IMG/VR virus record: IMGVR_UViG_2734482553_000012
Length of the DNA: 8,461 nucleotides
Direction: 5' to 3' (one strand)
Source: a virus
Lineage: Duplodnaviria > Heunggongvirae > Uroviricota > Caudoviricetes
Shown here: positions 1 through 8,461 of the stretch, piece after piece
How positions within the stretch are numbered: the stretch's first letter is position 1
Layout of the letters: every line of letters starts with the position of its first letter
Notes under the pieces: model-generated
The model's input: the letters and a program-made list of their open reading frames with translations, nothing else
What the model was told of the DNA's origin: nothing
The model's database searches: none
Position numbers and translations under genes: made by a program

Positions 1-3000
1 CGCCTGCTGGTTCAGATACAGCGTAACGGTGGCTGGGTGACGGAAAAAGACATCACCATTAAGGGCAAAACCACCTCGCAGTATCTGGTCTCGGTGGTGG
101 TGGATAACCTGCCTCCGCGCCCGTTCAGTATCCGGATGCGCAGGATGACACCGGACAGCACCACAGACCAGCTGCAGAACAAAACGCTCTGGTCGTCATA
201 CACCGAAATCATCGATGTGAAACAGTGCTACCCGAACACTGCACTGGTCGGCGTACAGGTGGACTCGGAGCAGTTCGGCAGCCAGCAGGTGAGTCGTAAT
301 TATCATCTTCGCGGGCGCATTCTGCAGGTGCCGTCGAACTATAACCCGCAGACGCGACAATACAGCGGTATCTGGGACGGAACGTTAAAACCAGCATACA
401 GCAACAACATGGCCTGGTGTCTGTGGGATATGCTGACCCACCCGCGCTACGGCATGGGGAAACGTCTTGGTGCGGCGGATGTGGACAAATGGGCGCTGTA
501 TGTCATCGGCCAGTACTGCGACCAGTCAGNNNNNNNNNNNNNNNNNNNNNNNNNNNNNNNNNNNNNNNNNNNNNNNNNNNNNNNNNNNNNNNNNNNNNNN
601 NNNNNNNNNNNNNNNNNNNNNNNNNNNNNNNNNNNNNNNNNNNNNNNNNNNNNNNNNNNNNNNNNNNNNNNNNNNNNNNNNNNNNNNNNNNNNNNNNNNN
701 NNNNNNNNNNNNNNNNNNNNNNNNNNNNNNNNNNNNNNNNNNNNNNNNNNNNNNNNNNNNNNNNNNNNNNNNNNNNNNNNNNNNNNNNNNNNNTGAACTG
801 GATTGACCCGGATAACGGCTGGGAGACGGCGACAGAGCTTGTGGAGGATACGCAGGCCATTGCCCGTTACGGTCGTAACGTCACGAAGATGGATGCTTTT
901 GGCTGTACCAGCCGGGGGCAGGCACACCGCGCCGGGCTGTGGCTGATTAAAACAGAACTGCTGGAAACGCAGACCGTGGACTTCAGCGTGGGCGCAGAAG
1001 GGCTTCGCCATGTGCCGGGCGATGTCATTGAAATCTGTGATGATGACTATGCGGGTATCAGCATCGGCGGGCGCGTGCTGGCGGTAAACAGCCAGACCCG
1101 GACGCTGACGCTCGACCGTGAAATCACGCTGCCATCCTCCGGTACCATGCTGATAAGCCTGGTTGACGGAAGTGGCAATCCGGTCAGCGTGGAGGTTCAG
1201 TCCGTCACCGACGGCGTGAAGGTGAAAGTGAGCCGTGTTCCTGACGGCGTTGCTGAATACAGCGTGTGGGGGCTGAAGCTGCCGACGTTGCGCCAGCGCC
1301 TGTTCCGCTGTGTGAGTANNNNNNNNNNNNNNNNNNNNNNNNNNNNNNNNNNNNNNNNNNNNNNNNNNNNNNNNNNNNNNNNNNNNNNNNNNNNNNNNNN
1401 NNNNNNNNNNNNNNNNNNNNNNNNNNNNNNNNNNNNNNNNNNNNNNNNNNNNNNNNNNNNNNNNNNNNNNNNNNNNNNNNNNNNNNNNNNNNNNNNNNNN
1501 NNNNNNNNNNNNNNNNNNNNNNNNNNNNNNNNNNNNNNNNNNNNNNNNNNNNNNNNNNNNNNNNNNNNNNNNNNNNNNNNNNNNNNNNNNNNNNNNNNNN
1601 NNNNNNNNNNNNNNNNNNNNNNNNNNNNNNNNNNNNNNNNNNNNNNNNNNNNNNNNNNNNNNNNGCTGACAGTCCGGGCGGTAAATGCCTGGGGACAGCA
1701 GGGCGATCCGGCGTCGGTATCGTTCAGGATTGCCGCACCGGTAGCACCGTCGCGGATTGAGCTGACGCCGGGCTATTTTCAGATAACTGCCACGCCGCAT
1801 CTTGCGGTTTATGATCCGACGGTACAGTTTGAGTTCTGGTTCTCGGAAACGCGGATTACCGATATCAGGCAGGTTGAAACCACAGCCCGCTACCTTGGCG
1901 CGGGGCTGTACTGGATAGCCGCCAGTATCAATATCAAACCGGGCCATGATTATTACTTTTATATCCGCAGTGTGAACACCGTTGGCAAATCGGCATTCGT
2001 GGAGGCCGTCGGTCGGGCGAGCGATGATGCGGAAGGTTACCTGGATTTTTTCAAAGGCAAGATAACCGAATCCCATCTCGGTAAAGAGCTGCTGGAAAAA
2101 GTTGATCTGACGGAGGATAACGCCAGCAGACTGGATGAGTTTTCGAAAGAGTGGAAGGACGCTAACGATAAATGGAATGCGATGTGGGGCGTCAAAATTG
2201 AGCAGACCAAAGACGGCAAACATTATGTCGCGGGTATTGGCCTCAGCATGGAGGACACGGAGGAAGGCAAGCTGAGCCAGTTTCTGGTTGCCGCCAATCG
2301 TATCGCGTTTATTGACCCGGCAAACGGGAATGAAACGCCGATGTTTGTGGCGCAGGGCAACCAGATATTCATGAACGACGTGTTCCTGAAGCGCCTGACA
2401 GCCCCCGCCATTACCAGCGGTGGCAGTCCTCCGGTATTTTCCCTGACATCAGACGGAAAGCTGACCGCTAAAAATGCGGATATCAGTGGTAGTGTGAATG
2501 CGAACTCAGGAACGCTCAACAATGTCACGATTAACCAGAACTGTACGATTAAGGGCATGCTGGAGGCGACCCAGGTCAGAGGGGATTTCGTTAAAGCTGT
2601 ATCAAAAGCCTTCCCGAAAAAAGTCGGTACGTGGGGTAACACGGAAACACCAGACGGTACGGTTACAGTCACCATCAGCGATGATCATAACTTTGACCGC
2701 CAGATTATTATTCCGCCCATTATTTTTAACGGTATAGCGTATGACGATCCGGGGAGCGGAAATAACCCGGGAGGCACGCGATACACGGGTTATGGTTTTG
2801 AAGTTCGCAAAAACGGCGTATTAATCGCATCCAGAGAAACTAAAGGTGCCATTCCCGGTAGTTACAGTGCAGTTATTGATATGCCTAGTGGTGGTGGTAG
2901 CGTCACTCTGGAGTTTAAGATTTTCCAGAAAGGCAATCAGGGGGCAGGCAATATCACCGACTGTACGGTGATTGTGACCAAAAAAGCGGCTTCCGGCATC

Positions 3001-3012
3001 AGTATTCGTTGA
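1..3012 (+). CDS. J: Host-specificity / tail tip protein J (central tail fibre), 5'-partial; start lies upstream of the window
   Basis: Seen: one open frame-1 reading frame from base 1 to TGA at 3010-3012 (the ORF track's 37..3012 is the same frame from its first ATG). From memory of lambda J: visible segments such as [128 protein letters not shown] and [59 protein letters not shown] match lambda J closely. Two N-runs fall inside the gene and keep the frame. Confidence 0.95.
530..793. other. Run of 264 N (masked or unresolved sequence) inside J
   Basis: Seen: uninterrupted n characters. Length is a multiple of 3 and the J frame is the same on both sides; the hidden span (88 codons) matches the distance between the flanking motifs (QYCDQS ... 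[10 protein letters not shown]) as I recall them in lambda J, so the masking appears length-preserving. Confidence 0.99.
1319..1664. other. Run of 346 N (masked or unresolved sequence) inside J
   Basis: Seen: uninterrupted n characters. Together with the partial codons at 1318 and 1665 it spans 116 codons; the J frame is positionally conserved across it (CVS before, [12 protein letters not shown] after). Confidence 0.99.
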
Positions 3013-3034
3013 AATATTTATAACCCCAATAAAT

Positions 3035-3061
3035 GGCGTCAGGAATGACGCCTTTTTTATT
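3035..3061 (+). terminator. Putative rho-independent terminator downstream of J
   Basis: Seen: inverted repeat GGCGTCA (3035-3041) / TGACGCC (3046-3052) with a 4-nt loop GGAA, followed directly by TTTTTTATT (3053-3061), 23 nt after the J stop. Confidence 0.6.
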
Positions 3062-3082
3062 GCAGAAAAGCGAGAGGTAATT

Positions 3083-3893
3083 ATGCGTAAAGTTTGTGCA
3101 GCCATTTTGTCCGCAGCCATTTGCCTGGCCGTATCCGGTGCGCCTGCATGGGCGTCTGAACATCAGTCCACGCTGAGCGCGGGGTATCTTCATGCCCGGA
3201 CCAACGTTCCCGGCAGTGATGATCTGAACGGGATTAACGTGAAATACCGTTATGAGTTTACGGATACGCTGGGGCTGGTGACGTCATTCAGCTATGCAGG
3301 AGACAAGAATCGCCAGCTGACCCGTTACAGCGATACCCGCTGGCATGAAGATTCCGTGCGTAACCGCTGGTTCAGCGTGATGGCGGGGCCGTCTGTGCGC
3401 GTGAATGAATGGTTCAGCGCGTATGCGATGGCGGGTGTGGCTTACAGCCGTGTGTCGACTTTCTCCGGGGATTATCTCCGCGTAACTGACAACAAGGGGA
3501 AAACGCACGACGTGCTGACCGGAAGTGATGACGGTCGCCACAGCAACACGTCTCTGGCGTGGGGAGCTGGCGTGCAGTTTAACCCGACCGAATCCGTGGC
3601 CATTGATATTGCTTATGAAGGCTCCGGCAGTGGCGACTGGCGCACTGACGGTTTCATCGTGGGTGNNNNNNNNNNNNNNNNNNNNNNNNNNNNNNNNNNN
3701 NNNNNNNNNNNNNNNNNNNNNNNNNNNNNNNNNNNNNNNNNNNNNNNNNNNNNNNNNNNNNNNNNNNNNNNNNNNNNNNNNNNNNNNNNNNNNNNNNNNN
3801 NNNNNNNNNNNNNNNNNNNNNNNNNNNNNNNNNNNNNNNNNNNNNNNNNNNNNNNNNGACGGTTTCATCGTGGGTGTCGGTTATAAATTCTGA
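3083..3893 (+). CDS. lom: Lom outer-membrane protein (Ail/Lom/PagC/OmpX family of 8-stranded beta-barrels); reading frame as given is broken near the 3' end by an N-run plus a 19-bp duplication
   Basis: Seen: ATG at 3083 preceded by GAGAGG (3072-3077); N-terminus MRKVCAAILSAAICLAVSGAPAWA-SEHQ looks like a signal peptide. From memory: the visible translation (HQSTLSAGYLHARTNVPGSDDLNGINVKYRYEFTDTLGLVTSFSYAGDKNRQLTRYSDTRWHEDSVRNRWFSVMAGPSVRVNEWFSAYAMAGVAYSRV...DWRTDGFIVG) matches lambda Lom almost residue for residue. Seen: the last codons GVGYKF-TGA (stop 3891-3893) sit in a different positional frame (start mod 3 = 0, versus 2 for the start codon) after the N-run. Confidence 0.85.
3647..3876. 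repeat. 19-bp perfect direct repeat GACGGTTTCATCGTGGGTG (3647-3665 and 3858-3876) flanking a 192-nt N-run inside lom
   Basis: Seen: the identical 19-mer immediately precedes and follows the N-run. N-run plus one repeat copy is 211 nt (not a multiple of 3), which accounts for the lom frameshift. Removing those 211 nt would restore an uninterrupted lom ending ...DGFIVGVGYKF. Confidence 0.9.
3666..3857. other. Run of 192 N (masked or unresolved sequence) inside lom
   Basis: Seen: uninterrupted n characters bounded by the 19-bp direct repeat. Confidence 0.99.
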
Positions 3894-3919: not shown

Positions 3920-3947
3920 AGCCCGCCGGTTCAGGCGGGCTTTTTTG
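3920..3947 (+). terminator. Putative rho-independent terminator downstream of lom
   Basis: Seen: AGCCCGCC (3920-3927) / GGCGGGCT (3934-3941) form a perfect 8-bp GC-rich stem with a 6-nt loop, followed by a T-run (3941-3946), 27 nt after the lom stop. Confidence 0.7.
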
Positions 3948-3957
3948 TGGGGTGAAT

Positions 3958-6900
3958 ATGGCAGTAAAGATTTCAGGTGTACTGAAAGACGGCACAGGAA
4001 AACCGGTACAGAACTGCACAATCCAGCTGAAAGCAAAACGTAACAGCACCACGGTGGTGGTGAACACGCTGGCCTCAGAAAATCCGGATGAAGCCGGGCG
4101 TTACAGCATGGACGTTGAGTACGGTCAGTACAGCGTTATTCTGTTGGTGGAAGGATTCCCGCCGTCACATGCCGGGACCATCACCGTGTATGAAGATTCC
4201 CGACCCGGTACGCTGAATGATTTTCTCGGTGCCATGACGGAGGATGATGCCCGTCCGGAGGCACTGCGCCGTTTTGAGCTGATGGTGGAAGAGGTGGCGC
4301 GTAACGCGTCCGCGGTGGCACAGAACACGGCAGCCGCGAAGAAATCAGCCAGCGATGCCAGCACATCAGCCCGTGAGGCGGCAACCCATGCGACTGATGC
4401 TGCAGATTCAGCACGTGCAGCCAGCACGTCAGCCGGACAGGCCGCTTCGTCGGCTCAGTCAGCGTCTTCCAGCGCAGGAACGGCATCAACAAAGGCCACT
4501 GAAGCCTCAAAAAGTGCTGCCGCTGCAGAGTCCTCAAAAAGCGCGGCGGCTACCAGTGCCGGTGCGGCGAAAACGTTAGAAACGAATGCGGCAGCGTCAC
4601 AACAATCAGCAGCCACTTCTGCATCCACCGCGACCACGAAAGCGTCAGAAGCTGCCACCTCAGCCCGGGATGCGTCGGCTTCAAAAGAGGCGGCAAAATC
4701 ATCAGAAACGAACGCATCATCAAGCGCCAGTAGCGCAGCTTCCTCGGCGACGGCGGCTGCAAATTCTGCGAAGGCGGCCAAAACGTCCGAGACGAACGCC
4801 AGGTCTTCTGAAACGGCAGCGGGACAGAGTGCCTCAGCTGCGGCAGGCTCAAAAACAGCGGCTGCGTCGTCTGCCAGCGCCGCGTCAACAAGTGCCGGGC
4901 AGGCCTCAGCCAGTGCCACCGCCGCCGGAAAATCGGCAGAAAGCGCCGCATCATCCGCTTCAACAGCCACAACGAAGGCTGGCGAAGCCACTGAGCAGGC
5001 CACGGCAGCAGCGAGGTCAGCTTCCGCAGCGAAGACATCCGAAACGAACGCGAAAGCGTCGGAAACCCGTGCAGAATCCTCAAAAACGGCTGCCGCATCG
5101 TCCGCCAGTTCGGCGGCGTCATCGGCATCATCGGCGTCTGCTTCAAAAGATGAGGCGACCAGACAGGCGTCAGCAGCGAAGGGCAGCGCCACGACGGCAT
5201 CCACGAAGGCGACAGAGGCTGCTGGTAGTGCGACGGCAGCAGCTCAGAGCAAAAGTACGGCGGAATCTGCAGCAACGCGCGCTGAGACAGCGGCAAAACG
5301 GGCAGAGGATATTGCATCCGCCGTGGCGCTTGAGGATGCGAGCACGACGAAAAAGGGGATAGTACAGCTCAGTAGTGCGACTAACAGCACTTCCGAGTCA
5401 CTGGCGGCAACACCAAAAGCCGTTAAGGCCGCGTATGACCTGGCTAACGGGAAATACACCGCACAGGATGCAACGACAGCACAGAAAGGGATAATCCAGC
5501 TAAGCAGCGCGACCAACAGCACGTCTGAAACGCTGGCGGCAACGCCAAAGGCAGTAAAAGCAGCCAATGACAATGCTGAGAAACGTCTGCAGAAAGATCA
5601 GAACGGTGCGGATATCCCTGGCAAAGACACCTTTACGAAAAATATTGGTGCCTGCCGTGCCTTCGGTGGGTCAGTAAGCACAACAACAGGAAACTGGACG
5701 ACTGCACAGTTTATCGAGTGGCTGGATTCTCAGGGAGCATTTAACCATCCATACTGGATGTGCAAGGGTTCCTGGTCTTATGGCAATAATAAAATCATTA
5801 CTGATACTGGCTGCGGTAATATTCATCTCGCCGGAGCTGTCATTGAAGTAATGGGGATAAAGTCAGCGATGACGATCCGCATTACCACTCCGACCACATC
5901 CAGCGGTGGCGGAACAACCAACGCCCAGTTTACCTATATTAATCACGGAACAGATTATTCACCTGGCTGGCGAAGGGACTATAACTCCAGAAATAAGCCA
6001 ACGGCATCAGAGATCGGGGCGCTACCGTCAGGTGGAACAGCAGTATCATCAGTTAATCTGGCTTCAAAAGGTCGGGTAGCCGCGCTGACAGACAATACGC
6101 AGGGGGCAGCAGGTCTTGAGTTATACGAGGTGTATAACAACGGATATCCAACAGCGTATGGAAATATCATTCACCTGAAAGGGATGACAGCCGTTGGCGA
6201 AGGTGAGTTACTCATCGGCTGGAGTGGTACAAGCGGTGCTCATGCTCCGGCATTTATTCGTTCACGACGGGATACGACCGACGCAAACTGGTCGCCGTGG
6301 GCGCAGCTTTACACCTCGGCTCATCCTCCTGCAGAGTTTTATCCAGTCGGTGCACCAATCCCGTGGCCATCAGATACCGTTCCGTCTGGTTATGCCCTGA
6401 TGCAGGGGCAGACTTTTGACAAATCTGCTTACCCGAAACTTGCAGCCGCTTATCCGTCAGGCGTGATCCCTGATATGCGTGGCTGGACGATTAAGGGCAA
6501 GCCCGCCAGTGGTCGTGCCGTATTGTCTCAGGAACAGGATGGCATTAAATCGCACACCCACAGCGCCAGCGCATCCAGTACGGATTTGGGGACGAAAACC
6601 ACATCGTCGTTTGATTACGGCACTAAATCCACGAATAACACCGGGGCGCATACGCACAGTCTGAGCGGCTCTACAAGTTCAGCTGGGGCCCACCAACATA
6701 GTCAGACTGGGCCCAGAACGAATAGCGGGAGTCAACCTACTGGAATGTTTCCGGCAGGGAGTACTCAAGTTAGCGGGACTAATCAGGTTGGTATCAGTGG
6801 CTCATTAACCAGTGGCACCTCCCAATGGGTAGGTAAATCATCTTCAGAAGGAAACCATACACACTCACTGTCCGGCACAGCAGCATCTGCGGGTGCACAC

Positions 6901-7041
6901 GCGCATACTGTCGGTATTGGTGCTCATACGCACTCTGTTGCGATTGGTTCACATGGACACACCATCACCGTTAACGCTGCTGGTAACGCGGAAAACACCG
7001 TCAAAAACATCGCATTTAACTATATTGTGAGGCTCGCATAA
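3958..7041 (+). CDS. stf: Side tail fibre protein (Stf-like), about 1027 aa, mosaic: lambda-Stf-like N-terminus, expanded Ala/Ser-rich shaft, tandem tail-fibre repeats, a non-lambda central module and a lambda-Stf-like His-rich C-terminal tip
   Basis: Seen: frame-1 ORF ending at TAA 7039-7041; the ORF track starts at GTG 3952, but ATG 3958 gives [26 protein letters not shown], which matches the lambda Stf N-terminus from memory; GGGGTG lies just upstream. From memory: the C-terminal ~230 residues (GAPIPWPSD...[34 protein letters not shown]...[31 protein letters not shown]) match lambda Stf. Choice of start codon is inference. Confidence 0.92.
4290..5340 (+). repeat. Ala/Ser/Thr-rich low-complexity, internally repetitive region of stf (about 350 codons)
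   Basis: Seen: translation is dominated by A, S, T, K, E with recurring motifs ([44 protein letters not shown]) and the DNA is GC-rich and self-similar. Both antisense frames and an alternative sense frame stay open across it (ORF-track entries 4455..5204 -, 4550..5317 -, 4586..5362 +), a typical low-complexity artefact. Confidence 0.85.
5353..5571 (+). repeat. Tandem duplication of a phage tail-fibre repeat motif inside stf (period 132 nt / 44 aa)
   Basis: Seen: [29 protein letters not shown] (5353-5439) and [29 protein letters not shown] (5485-5571) are nearly identical at the protein level, while the DNA copies differ at many synonymous positions (e.g. CAGCTCAGTAGTGCGACTAACAGCACTTCC vs CAGCTAAGCAGCGCGACCAACAGCACGTCT). 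The motif resembles the conserved phage tail-fibre repeat found in T-even and lambdoid fibres (recollection). Confidence 0.85.
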
Positions 7042-7622
7042 TGGCATTCAGAATGAGTGAACAAGCACGGACCATAAAAATTTATAACCTGCTGGCCGGA
7101 ACTAATGAATTTATTGGTGAAGGTGACGCATATATTCCGCCTCATACAGGTCTGCCTGCAAACAGTACCGATATTGCACCGCCAGATATTCCGGCTGGTT
7201 TCGTGGCTGTTTTCAACAGTGATGAGTCATCGTGGCATCTCGTTGAAGATCATCGGGGTAAAACGGTTTATGACGTGGCTTCCGGCGACGCGTTATTTAT
7301 TTCTGAACTCGGCTCATTACCGGAAAATGTCACCTGGTTATCCCCGGAAGGGGAGTTTCAGAAGTGGAACGGCACAGCCTGGGTGAAGGATACGGAAGCA
7401 GAAAAACTGTTCCGGATCCGGGAGGCGGAAGAAACAAAAAACAGCCTGATGCAGGTAGCCAGTGAGCATATAGCGCCGCTTCAGGATGCTGTGGATCTGG
7501 AGATCGCAACGGAGAAAGAAACCTTGTTGCTGGAAGCTTGGAAAAAGTATCGGGTGTTGCTGAACCGTGTTGATACATCAACTGCACCGGATATTGAATG
7601 GCCAGTAGCACCTATAGGGTAA
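7041..7622 (+). CDS. tfa: Tail fibre assembly protein (Tfa chaperone)
   Basis: Seen: ORF from ATG 7041-7043 to TAA 7620-7622; its start overlaps the stf stop by one base (TAATG at 7039-7043). From memory: translation [62 protein letters not shown]...[26 protein letters not shown] matches lambda Tfa very closely. Confidence 0.93.
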
Positions 7623-7705
7623 ATTCGTAATGATTACCTAAATACGTTATTCTTTTGTTAAAAAAGTGATTTTGCTATAGGTAGGGAGTATGTTCTTGGA
7701 TTAAG

Positions 7706-7738
7706 AATAAAAAATCGCCATGAAAGAGCTTCATGGCG
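7706..7738 (-). terminator. Putative rho-independent terminator readable on the minus strand
   Basis: Seen: perfect 9-bp inverted repeat CGCCATGAA (7716-7724) / TTCATGGCG (7730-7738) with a 5-nt loop; on the + strand it is preceded by AATAAAAAAT (7706-7715), so on the minus strand the hairpin is followed by ATTTTTTATT. No T-run follows it on the + strand. Confidence 0.45.
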
Positions 7739-8068
7739 AGTACATAAACGTACAAAATGTGATGAAAGTAGAGTGGCGTAAGCCACTATATTAAGATATG
7801 ACAATAGCGAAGAAAAGTAAATAACATTTTATGGACGTTTAATTGTTAATTATAAAAACTAGAGTGCCCGATATTGTTTATCTTGCTTTAAAATAATGTA
7901 CTCAAACCAAATTTTTGAGCTAAAAGCTCAAATAATATAAATGCAATAATAATGTTTAATAAGACAATTAGCTTGCTTTGTATTTTCATTTCGGAATACT
8001 GTTAAGTAACTTTGATGACCCTAACAATAGATCGGAATTTTCTTAGAGTCAATGGTCACTGTTTTTGC

Positions 8069-8098
8069 TTGCAAAGCAAATGTTTTGGTGGTTATAAG
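8069..8098 (+). promoter_or_regulatory. Sigma70-like promoter candidate (TTGCAA - 18 bp - TATAAG)
   Basis: Seen: TTGCAA at 8069-8074 and TATAAG at 8093-8098, separated by 18 bp, in AT-rich DNA. Pattern match only; AT-rich sequence produces many such matches by chance. Confidence 0.2.
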
Positions 8099-8371
8099 TC
8101 GTCTTAATATAGTCACGCATGCAACTTGTTCCATGCGGAGATTAAAGATTGGAATATAACGCGAAGATGGAATTAAATTACATTTGCAATAATTAATTTA
8201 TTATTACTCAATAATTACCGATATTATTATTGTAAATTAATCATTAGAATGCAAAAAGAAATGTAACGGCAAAATAAGAGGACGATAGCTGAGAAAAAAG
8301 CGTGCTTTCCCAATCTGGGGCAAATCACGTCTGAATGACACCTGAAAACAGGTGGTAGCCTCAAGAAGGCT

Positions 8372-8394
8372 GGTGATGCTGCCAACTTACTGAT
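8372..8394 (+). repeat. IS1 left terminal inverted repeat (IRL)
   Basis: From memory: GGTGATGCTGCCAACTTACTGAT is the canonical 23-bp IS1 terminal inverted repeat. The 9 bp just outside it (8363-8371, AAGAAGGCT) would be the target-site duplication if this is a simple insertion; the other copy would lie beyond the window. Confidence 0.85.
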
Positions 8395-8426
8395 TTAGTG
8401 TATGATGGTGTTTTTGAGGTGCTCCA

Positions 8427-8461
8427 GTGGCTTCTGTTTCTATCAGCTGTCCCTCCTGTTC
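8427..8461 (+). CDS. insA: IS1 InsA (transposition regulator), 5'-partial fragment with GTG start
   Basis: Seen: GTG at 8427 followed by GCT TCT GTT TCT ATC AGC TGT CCC TCC TGT, translating to (M)ASVSISCPSC. From memory: this is the InsA N-terminus, and insA is known to start with GTG. Runs off the window end. Confidence 0.85.
   Translation, partial: MASVSISCPSC

Follow-up and report, generated by a model that had tools for sequence, protein, structure and literature searches.

The host-range allele of J from phage 434 has been part of lambda genetics for decades, and the switch of receptor to OmpC associated with it is textbook knowledge. Protein Ib, i.e. OmpC, was reportedly first identified as the 434 receptor by Hantke in 1978. 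Host specificity is set by the C-terminus of gpJ, and replacement of lambda J by the 434 tail fibre gene yields a phage that binds OmpC, the receptor of 434 (PMC3509688; PMC11101478). The cryo-EM analysis of lambda gpJ with LamB revealed three receptor-binding domains (RBDs), each with four bottom loops, inserted into the LamB trimer; the base of the knob spreads, and this change travels up the beta-prism and opens the tail tip (PMC11101478). Structures have been solved for related OmpC-binding tips, which have already been used for retargeting lambda particles; with a natural gpJ C-terminus fused at residue 964, such particles deliver DNA through OmpC (PMC11338833). The EHEC siphophage phi330, whose RBD shares 35-40% identity with those of 434 and lambda, also needs OmpC (PMC12502783), and in the J protein of phage 21 single substitutions can move receptor use from LamB to OmpC and on to OmpF (PMC11336670).

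The window analyzed here is a stretch of 8,461 nucleotides from a Caudoviricetes virus (IMG/VR record IMGVR_UViG_2734482553_000012). Based on the list of open reading frames (ORFs), Pfam domains and protein comparison, it represents a region of lambda-type tail-tip genes (J, lom, stf and tfa), all encoded on the plus strand. J, coding for the tail tip attachment or host specificity protein, occupies positions 1..3012 as a frame-1 ORF with its 5' end outside the window, with N-masks (530-793 and 1319-1664) hiding 610 nt of its body. It is followed by lom (3083..3683), an outer-membrane beta-barrel gene of the Ail/Lom family (PF06316 Ail_Lom, E 1e-118), whose 3' end lies under a further N-mask (3666-3857), so that its end at 3683 was placed by colinearity with 434; the 267-aa lom ORF in the ORF list was discarded as an artefact of the Ns. 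The tail fibre assembly chaperone gene tfa (7041..7622; PF02413) encodes a product with 93% identity to lambda Tfa and is followed on its 3' side by an AT-rich stretch and then by an IS1 end at 8372-8461, ~750 nt downstream of tfa. Long minus-strand ORFs across J and stf (e.g. 526-2223 and 4455-5204) were not taken as genes, since they appear to result from the N-masks and from the high GC content of the Ala/Ser-rich part of stf.

The side tail fibre gene stf, located between lom and tfa (3958..7041, starting with the ATG at 3958), is intact and codes for 1027 aa with phage_tail_N, Phage_fiber_2 and Collar domains (Pfam). The Stf N-terminus, MAVKISG, is the same as in lambda and mEp460_ev081, and the whole protein is 94% identical to Stf of mEp460_ev081. 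Its N-terminal 326 aa show 85% identity to lambda orf-401 and its C-terminal 233 aa 70% to lambda orf-314. Stf represents a second adsorption determinant of this phage, separate from the J tip considered in the following.

According to the original prediction, made for positions 2620-3009, the last ~130 codons of J are unlike lambda J. The peptide quoted there is the exact translation of this segment, and pairwise alignment with lambda J (NC_001416) returned a near-identical body followed by a tip of 130 residues with 44 identities in the 136 columns of a global alignment (32%). The prediction was to be abandoned if the last 150 residues turned out more than 90% identical to lambda, as expected of the lambda (LamB-binding) allele; instead, BLASTP of the last 170 aa gave 40% (E 7e-37, three indels), and the last 130 aa, as stated above, 32%. 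Upstream of the tip, the proposed match to lambda J was borne out: the visible 50-residue blocks are 86-100% identical up to alignment column 950, all but one of them at 92% or more, whereas those after column 950 retain 38/50, 23/50, 13/50 and 14/45 residues. The protein encoded by 1666-2499 agrees with lambda J at 262/278 positions, and at the DNA level J is 93-96% identical to lambda up to 2568 (blastn). The drop in GC content noted for the tip was reproduced as well, with 0.479 in 2620-3009 compared to 0.557 in the rest of the visible J, while the 3' end of lambda's own J has 0.554.

While the divergent tip itself stood up to this comparison, its borders had to be moved on both sides. The break lies ~50-100 nt before position 2620: measured per 60 nt, the identity to lambda DNA falls from 0.95 to 0.65 (block 2518-2577) and then to 0.38, and blastn homology stops at 2568, which corresponds to lambda J residue ~974-990, as compared to residue 1008 for position 2620. 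At the other side, an end at 3009 is too short, as the divergence runs past the J stop codon through a terminator and most of lom; alignment to lambda DNA resumes at 3555, close to where lom ends, and is fully restored after 3858 (blastn). J thus departs from lambda at a sharp mosaic junction located inside the gene at 2520..2568, as marked by the fall in identity per 60 nt and the end of the blastn HSP. In the protein, this position lies at the beta-prism fibre base, immediately above the RBD, and the graft point used for lambda particles, residue 964, is essentially the natural junction of this J protein.

When positions 2200-3100 were searched against phage records by megablast, matches spanning the entire query were obtained with mEp460_ev081 (97.8% identity) and with 434, 434B and lambda h434 imm21 (96.7-96.8%). 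Within the last 130 aa of J, 127 residues (98%) are identical to 434 J and 129 to J of mEp460_ev081; over the last 170 aa, 167 agree with 434 J (UMO75286.1, OL657226), the classical h434 host-range allele. The DNA is 96-100% identical to 434 in every 60-nt block from 2518 to the J stop codon, and the larger segment 1665-3665 shows 96-97% nucleotide identity to both 434 and mEp460_ev081 and is colinear with 434. Judged by this near-identity over the whole domain and by the same junction to a lambda-like body, the J tip can be assigned with near certainty to the 434 allele of the gpJ RBD. The original prediction had rightly spotted a different receptor-binding tip, but had not recognized it as the classical 434 ('h434') allele. 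From ~2520 up to its stop codon at 3012, J encodes a 434-type tip, which sits on an otherwise lambda-like body.

The same relationship continues beyond J. The Lom protein shows 97% amino acid identity to Lom of 434 versus 44% to Lom of lambda, and the 70-nt spacer between J and lom contains an intrinsic terminator-like hairpin followed by a T run (3035..3060; GGCGTCAGGAATGACGCC then TTTTTTA), which lies within the non-lambda DNA at the place where a terminator is annotated in phage 434. Since Lom likewise belongs to the 434 allele and the J tip is near-identical to 434, the unit that is unlike lambda is, on sequence grounds, a cassette of ~1 kb comprising the J tip, the terminator and most of lom, with lambda-like DNA on both sides. 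A module exchange by recombination is indicated by the abruptness of its edges, by the GC shift and by the fact that the unit takes in non-coding DNA as well as a second gene. The cassette, which is common to 434 and mEp460_ev081 almost base for base, would have been gained by homologous recombination. Selection is known to act on the receptor-binding loops of gpJ, and variable sites within the 434-type clade cluster in loops, so that one might also consider that the tip diverged in place from that of lambda by point mutations under diversifying selection, with no module swap. We rejected this explanation, to which we assign next to no probability, because the break is abrupt and takes in the non-coding spacer and the neighbouring lom; moreover, it is accompanied by the GC shift from 0.557 to 0.479, and the resulting segment is a near base-for-base copy of the one in 434 and mEp460_ev081.

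In order to describe the tip at the domain level, we compared it with Pfam and with solved structures. Nucleotides 2599..3006 encode an Ig-like domain matching PF12421 (Ig_GpJ_C; 'Tip attachment protein J, C-terminal receptor binding domain') with 89.8 bits at a cutoff of 26.2. The match covers profile positions 1-134 of 135 and residues 312-447 of the 1666-3009 translation, ending one residue before the stop codon, and in the same frame the visible J carries Ig_J_second (PF24489) and Phage_Tail_Tip (PF09327) directly upstream. An AlphaFold2 model of the last 170 J residues, built on a 33-sequence alignment, was all-beta with a mean pLDDT of 82. Its four best Foldseek matches in the PDB, far ahead of the rest, were 9wcb, 8xck, 8xcj and 9wca (TM 0.71-0.74, E about 1e-13), with 46% identity to 9wcb, entitled 'Open state of A8 gpJ 713 central tail fiber with OmpC G17 from E. 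coli EDL933', and 39% to 8xck/8xcj; these lambda gpJ matches include closed and open states. A sequence search of the PDB likewise gave A8 gpJ 713 (9wca/9wcb) at 1.8e-55, followed by lambda gpJ 8xcj/8xck at 8.9e-47 and 8iyk at 4.9e-46.

The PF12421 score together with the PDB sequence and fold matches identifies the J tip as a genuine member of the gpJ receptor-binding family, with the fold of the lambda tip, as modelled, but different loops; the profile score, the Ig-like fold and the upstream J fibre modules are all those of a PF12421 member. The assumption that the C-terminus of J is its receptor-recognition part is therefore in agreement with both the domain assignment and the literature on gpJ. 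A tip of the A8 type was also considered and rejected, the PDB A8 sequence being 46% identical in the structural alignment, where close identity would be expected. A search for the window DNA in the supplementary files of PMC11338833, aimed at a possible identity with the published A8 or 1A2 tips, gave no match.

It had further been suggested that the receptor of this phage may differ from LamB. The 98% identity to the RBD of 434 J, an OmpC user, supports this, and since the tip is nearly identical to that of 434, whose receptor is OmpC, we consider it highly probable that the phage uses OmpC rather than LamB. By analogy with the solved homologues, the central tail fibre would end, as it does in lambda, in a distal knob made up of three copies of the Ig-like domain. 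The bottom loops of this knob would dock in the extracellular mouth of a trimeric porin, most probably OmpC and not LamB, and binding would spread the knob, twist the beta-prism and open the tail tip for DNA ejection. Taken as a whole, a 434-type tip acquired by recombination and most probably directed at OmpC is, with good confidence, the best explanation of the locus.

In the hybrid lambda h434 imm21, J, lom, stf and the genes beyond are all of the 434 version and have the same coordinates as in 434. We therefore rejected it as a narrow map of the host-range determinant, as the additional presence of 434 lom, stf and further genes means that it does not pin host range to the J tip alone. A survey of the literature on mEp460 and the PhiR/ECOR phages retrieved unrelated or genomic papers only, with no receptor data, and a preprint on bulk receptor prediction (10.64898/2026.04.02.716166) was set aside as a receptor source because it covers GpJ tips of Drexlerviridae and excludes lambda-like ones.

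The IS1 end beyond tfa would fit a decaying prophage in which the J tip no longer serves adsorption at all, and with J partly masked and its 5' end outside the window, the reading frame is seen in the visible parts only. Nevertheless, we regard decay as improbable, as all visible parts of J, stf and tfa are open frames and colinear with the functional mEp460_ev081 and PhiR26_1 at 96-97%; it would, in addition, bear on the activity of the phage and not on the identity of the domain. For the annotation of this phage, the 434-type assignment means a probable OmpC user rather than a LamB user.

Next, we analyzed the variation within the 434-type allele based on 80 IMG/VR loci with a tip of the window type (94-100% identity), which comprise 31 distinct 170-aa sequences, three of the loci being identical to the window. 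Variable positions in this clade cluster at the junction and in three loops, which coincide with the indels relative to lambda, and these loops are probably receptor-facing. The window differs from 434 J at only three residues (Ile/Val at nt 2920, Gln/His at nt 2926 and Gly/Arg at nt 2941), all within a single loop at 2920..2943; in lambda h434 imm21, the third of these sites is occupied by Trp. In each case, the residue found in the window is that of the majority of the 80 loci (I 72/V 8, Q 72/H 8, G 72/R 4/W 4).

Since single J substitutions in phage 21 can add OmpC and OmpF to LamB use, there is a modest chance that the fine specificity of this tip differs from that of 434. In its stronger form, this would mean that the allele is of 434 type by descent, while its Ile/Gln/Gly loop shifts specificity towards another porin (OmpF, LamB or others) or towards a different subset of OmpC alleles. 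In favour of this, the loop in which all three differences from 434 are located is the most polymorphic one in the clade, the third site varies between G, R and W in nature and is W in the laboratory h434 allele, porin use is altered by single J mutations in phage 21 (PMC11336670), and the natural OmpC-binding tips A8 and 1A2 accept different OmpC alleles (PMC11338833). However, the domain is 98% identical to 434 over its entire length, the window residues are those of the clade majority (72 of 80 loci), which makes 434 the outlier, and a changed preference among OmpC alleles would still be use of OmpC. Such a shift thus appears unlikely, and we retain OmpC as the predicted receptor. Independent of this question, loop 2920-2943 is a hot spot of natural variation in the 434-type allele and a sensible target for host-range engineering.

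To place the allele in its host population, we determined its prevalence in complete E. coli genomes. The 493-nt tip (2520-3012) was present in 2113 of 5426 genomes, with up to seven copies in some of them and 299 records at 99% identity or higher. The corresponding lambda segment was detected in 98/5426 genomes, in all cases with at least 99% identity, and the five lambda-allele genomes listed are the laboratory strains K-12 C3026, B C3029, C41(DE3), C43(DE3) and BL21-Gold(DE3). Based on these counts, the 434-type tip is the common natural form in E. coli and the lambda tip the unusual one. A protein search also returned many hundreds of clustered 'host specificity protein J' matches from E. 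coli, E. albertii and Shigella.

A close association was also seen between the J tip and lom. Among the 72 IMG/VR loci that combine a window-type J tip with enough downstream DNA to be informative, 61 carry a 434-type lom and none a lambda-type lom, the remaining 11 having no lom. One could assume that both are kept together by a functional match beyond their close linkage; in that case, 434-type Lom expressed by a prophage may alter the cell surface in a way relevant to phages docking at OmpC. However, with 11 loci lacking lom and a distance of only 70 nt between both genes, we rate a functional link behind this tight co-occurrence as very unlikely.

Overall, the J tip is not a novel element but a long-known 434-type module in an ordinary lambdoid mosaic, the product of a very common swap. 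The RBD of lambda gpJ, which binds LamB (8XCK, closed; 8XCJ, with LamB), shares with it the Pfam family, the Ig-like fold, the position at the fibre end and framework motifs such as DDHxFDRQ. It differs by an overall identity of 32-40%, by three indels of 2-6 residues at the loops that are variable in the 434 clade, and by the predicted porin. A8 gpJ, a lambda chimera engineered to carry a natural tip from a prophage (9WCA; 9WCB, with EDL933 OmpC), is the best PDB match in both sequence and fold. It belongs to the same domain family, binds OmpC and was grafted at almost the same junction, but at 46% identity it represents a separate allele, whose OmpC contacts are not simply transferable to the tip described here.

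Closer relatives are found among the phages themselves. The visible window up to 7605, including stf and tfa, matches mEp460_ev081 (LR597641) at 97% nucleotide identity, and its J tip is separated from that of mEp460_ev081 J (VUF53328.1) by a single substitution (D/N). After tfa they differ, and the window goes on like mEp332/ev099 before reaching the IS1 end. Phage 434, in turn, is set apart by the three loop substitutions and by a Stf of 437 aa, compared to the 1027-aa Stf of the window, which is close to that of mEp460_ev081; what 434 and the window have in common is the lambda-like J body, the junction, the terminator and the lom allele (97%).

The lom gene, which encodes an Ail/Lom outer-membrane protein and lies directly downstream of the tail tip gene J, carries the phage-434 allele (3083-3683). 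Its product shares 97% amino acid identity with the Lom of phage 434, but only 44% with that of lambda, and the gene is part of the non-lambda cassette that also includes the phage-434-type receptor-binding tip of J. Among 72 IMG/VR loci with a 434-type J tip, 434-type lom was found in 61 and a lambda-type gene in none (0/72), while the remaining 11 were without lom. Between lom and stf, the side tail fibre gene, we identified a strong terminator-like hairpin (3920-3941; AGCCCGCC GGTTCA GGCGGGCT, followed by TTTTT), the counterpart of the terminator that the phage 434 annotation places after lom.

Within the 434-type tip, one codon (2941-2943, corresponding to residue 1115 of 434 J) differs between related phages: the window has Gly, wild-type 434 has Arg, and the laboratory hybrid lambda h434 imm21 has Trp. 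Gly also prevails across 80 IMG/VR loci (G 72, R 4, W 4). In tips of the 434 type, this site is a likely hot spot for changes in host range.

Three stretches of the window are masked by N runs, two of them within J (530-793, 264 nt; 1319-1664, 346 nt) and one hiding the 3' end of lom (3666-3857, 192 nt). The span of the first is 3 nt shorter than in colinear lambda and 434 alike, and that of the second 6 nt longer than in the colinear homologues; this means either that the masks do not preserve length exactly or that they conceal small in-frame indels. Long ORFs running across the masks are artefacts.

The tail fibre assembly gene tfa contains, wholly within its 3' half and on the coding strand, a gathering-level match to the Rfam family IS009 (RF02111; 7384-7582, 218 bits). 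Rather than marking a separate RNA gene, the match probably arises because the family was defined from a tfa-like sequence of a prophage.

Downstream follows an AT-rich stretch (7650-8370; GC approximately 0.29) with a longest ORF of at most 52 aa. It marks another mosaic junction directly after tfa: phages mEp332, PhiR70_1 and ev099 have this stretch in common with the window at 98.5-99% identity, whereas mEp460_ev081, otherwise the best match to the window, does not share it. An IS1 element is inserted 3' of tfa; its left inverted repeat and the start of insA (8372-8461; GGTGATGCTGCCAACTTACTGATTTAGTG... GTGGCTTCTGTTTCTATCAGC) show 98% identity to the IS1 copy of phage P1, and the element continues past the right end of the window. 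The insertion fits better with a resident prophage than with a freshly isolated phage.

In contrast to laboratory lambda, where stf is frameshifted, the stf gene of the window is intact (3958-7041; 1027 aa). Its central part is long, Ala/Ser-rich and GC-rich (~0.6) with a strong A-over-T skew, and this composition accounts for long spurious antisense ORFs over the gene. The C-terminal 233 aa of Stf share 70% identity with lambda orf-314, the portion of the Ur-lambda Stf that was reported as OmpC-binding (PMC11338833). Judged by this resemblance, OmpC might be a shared target of J and Stf in this phage.
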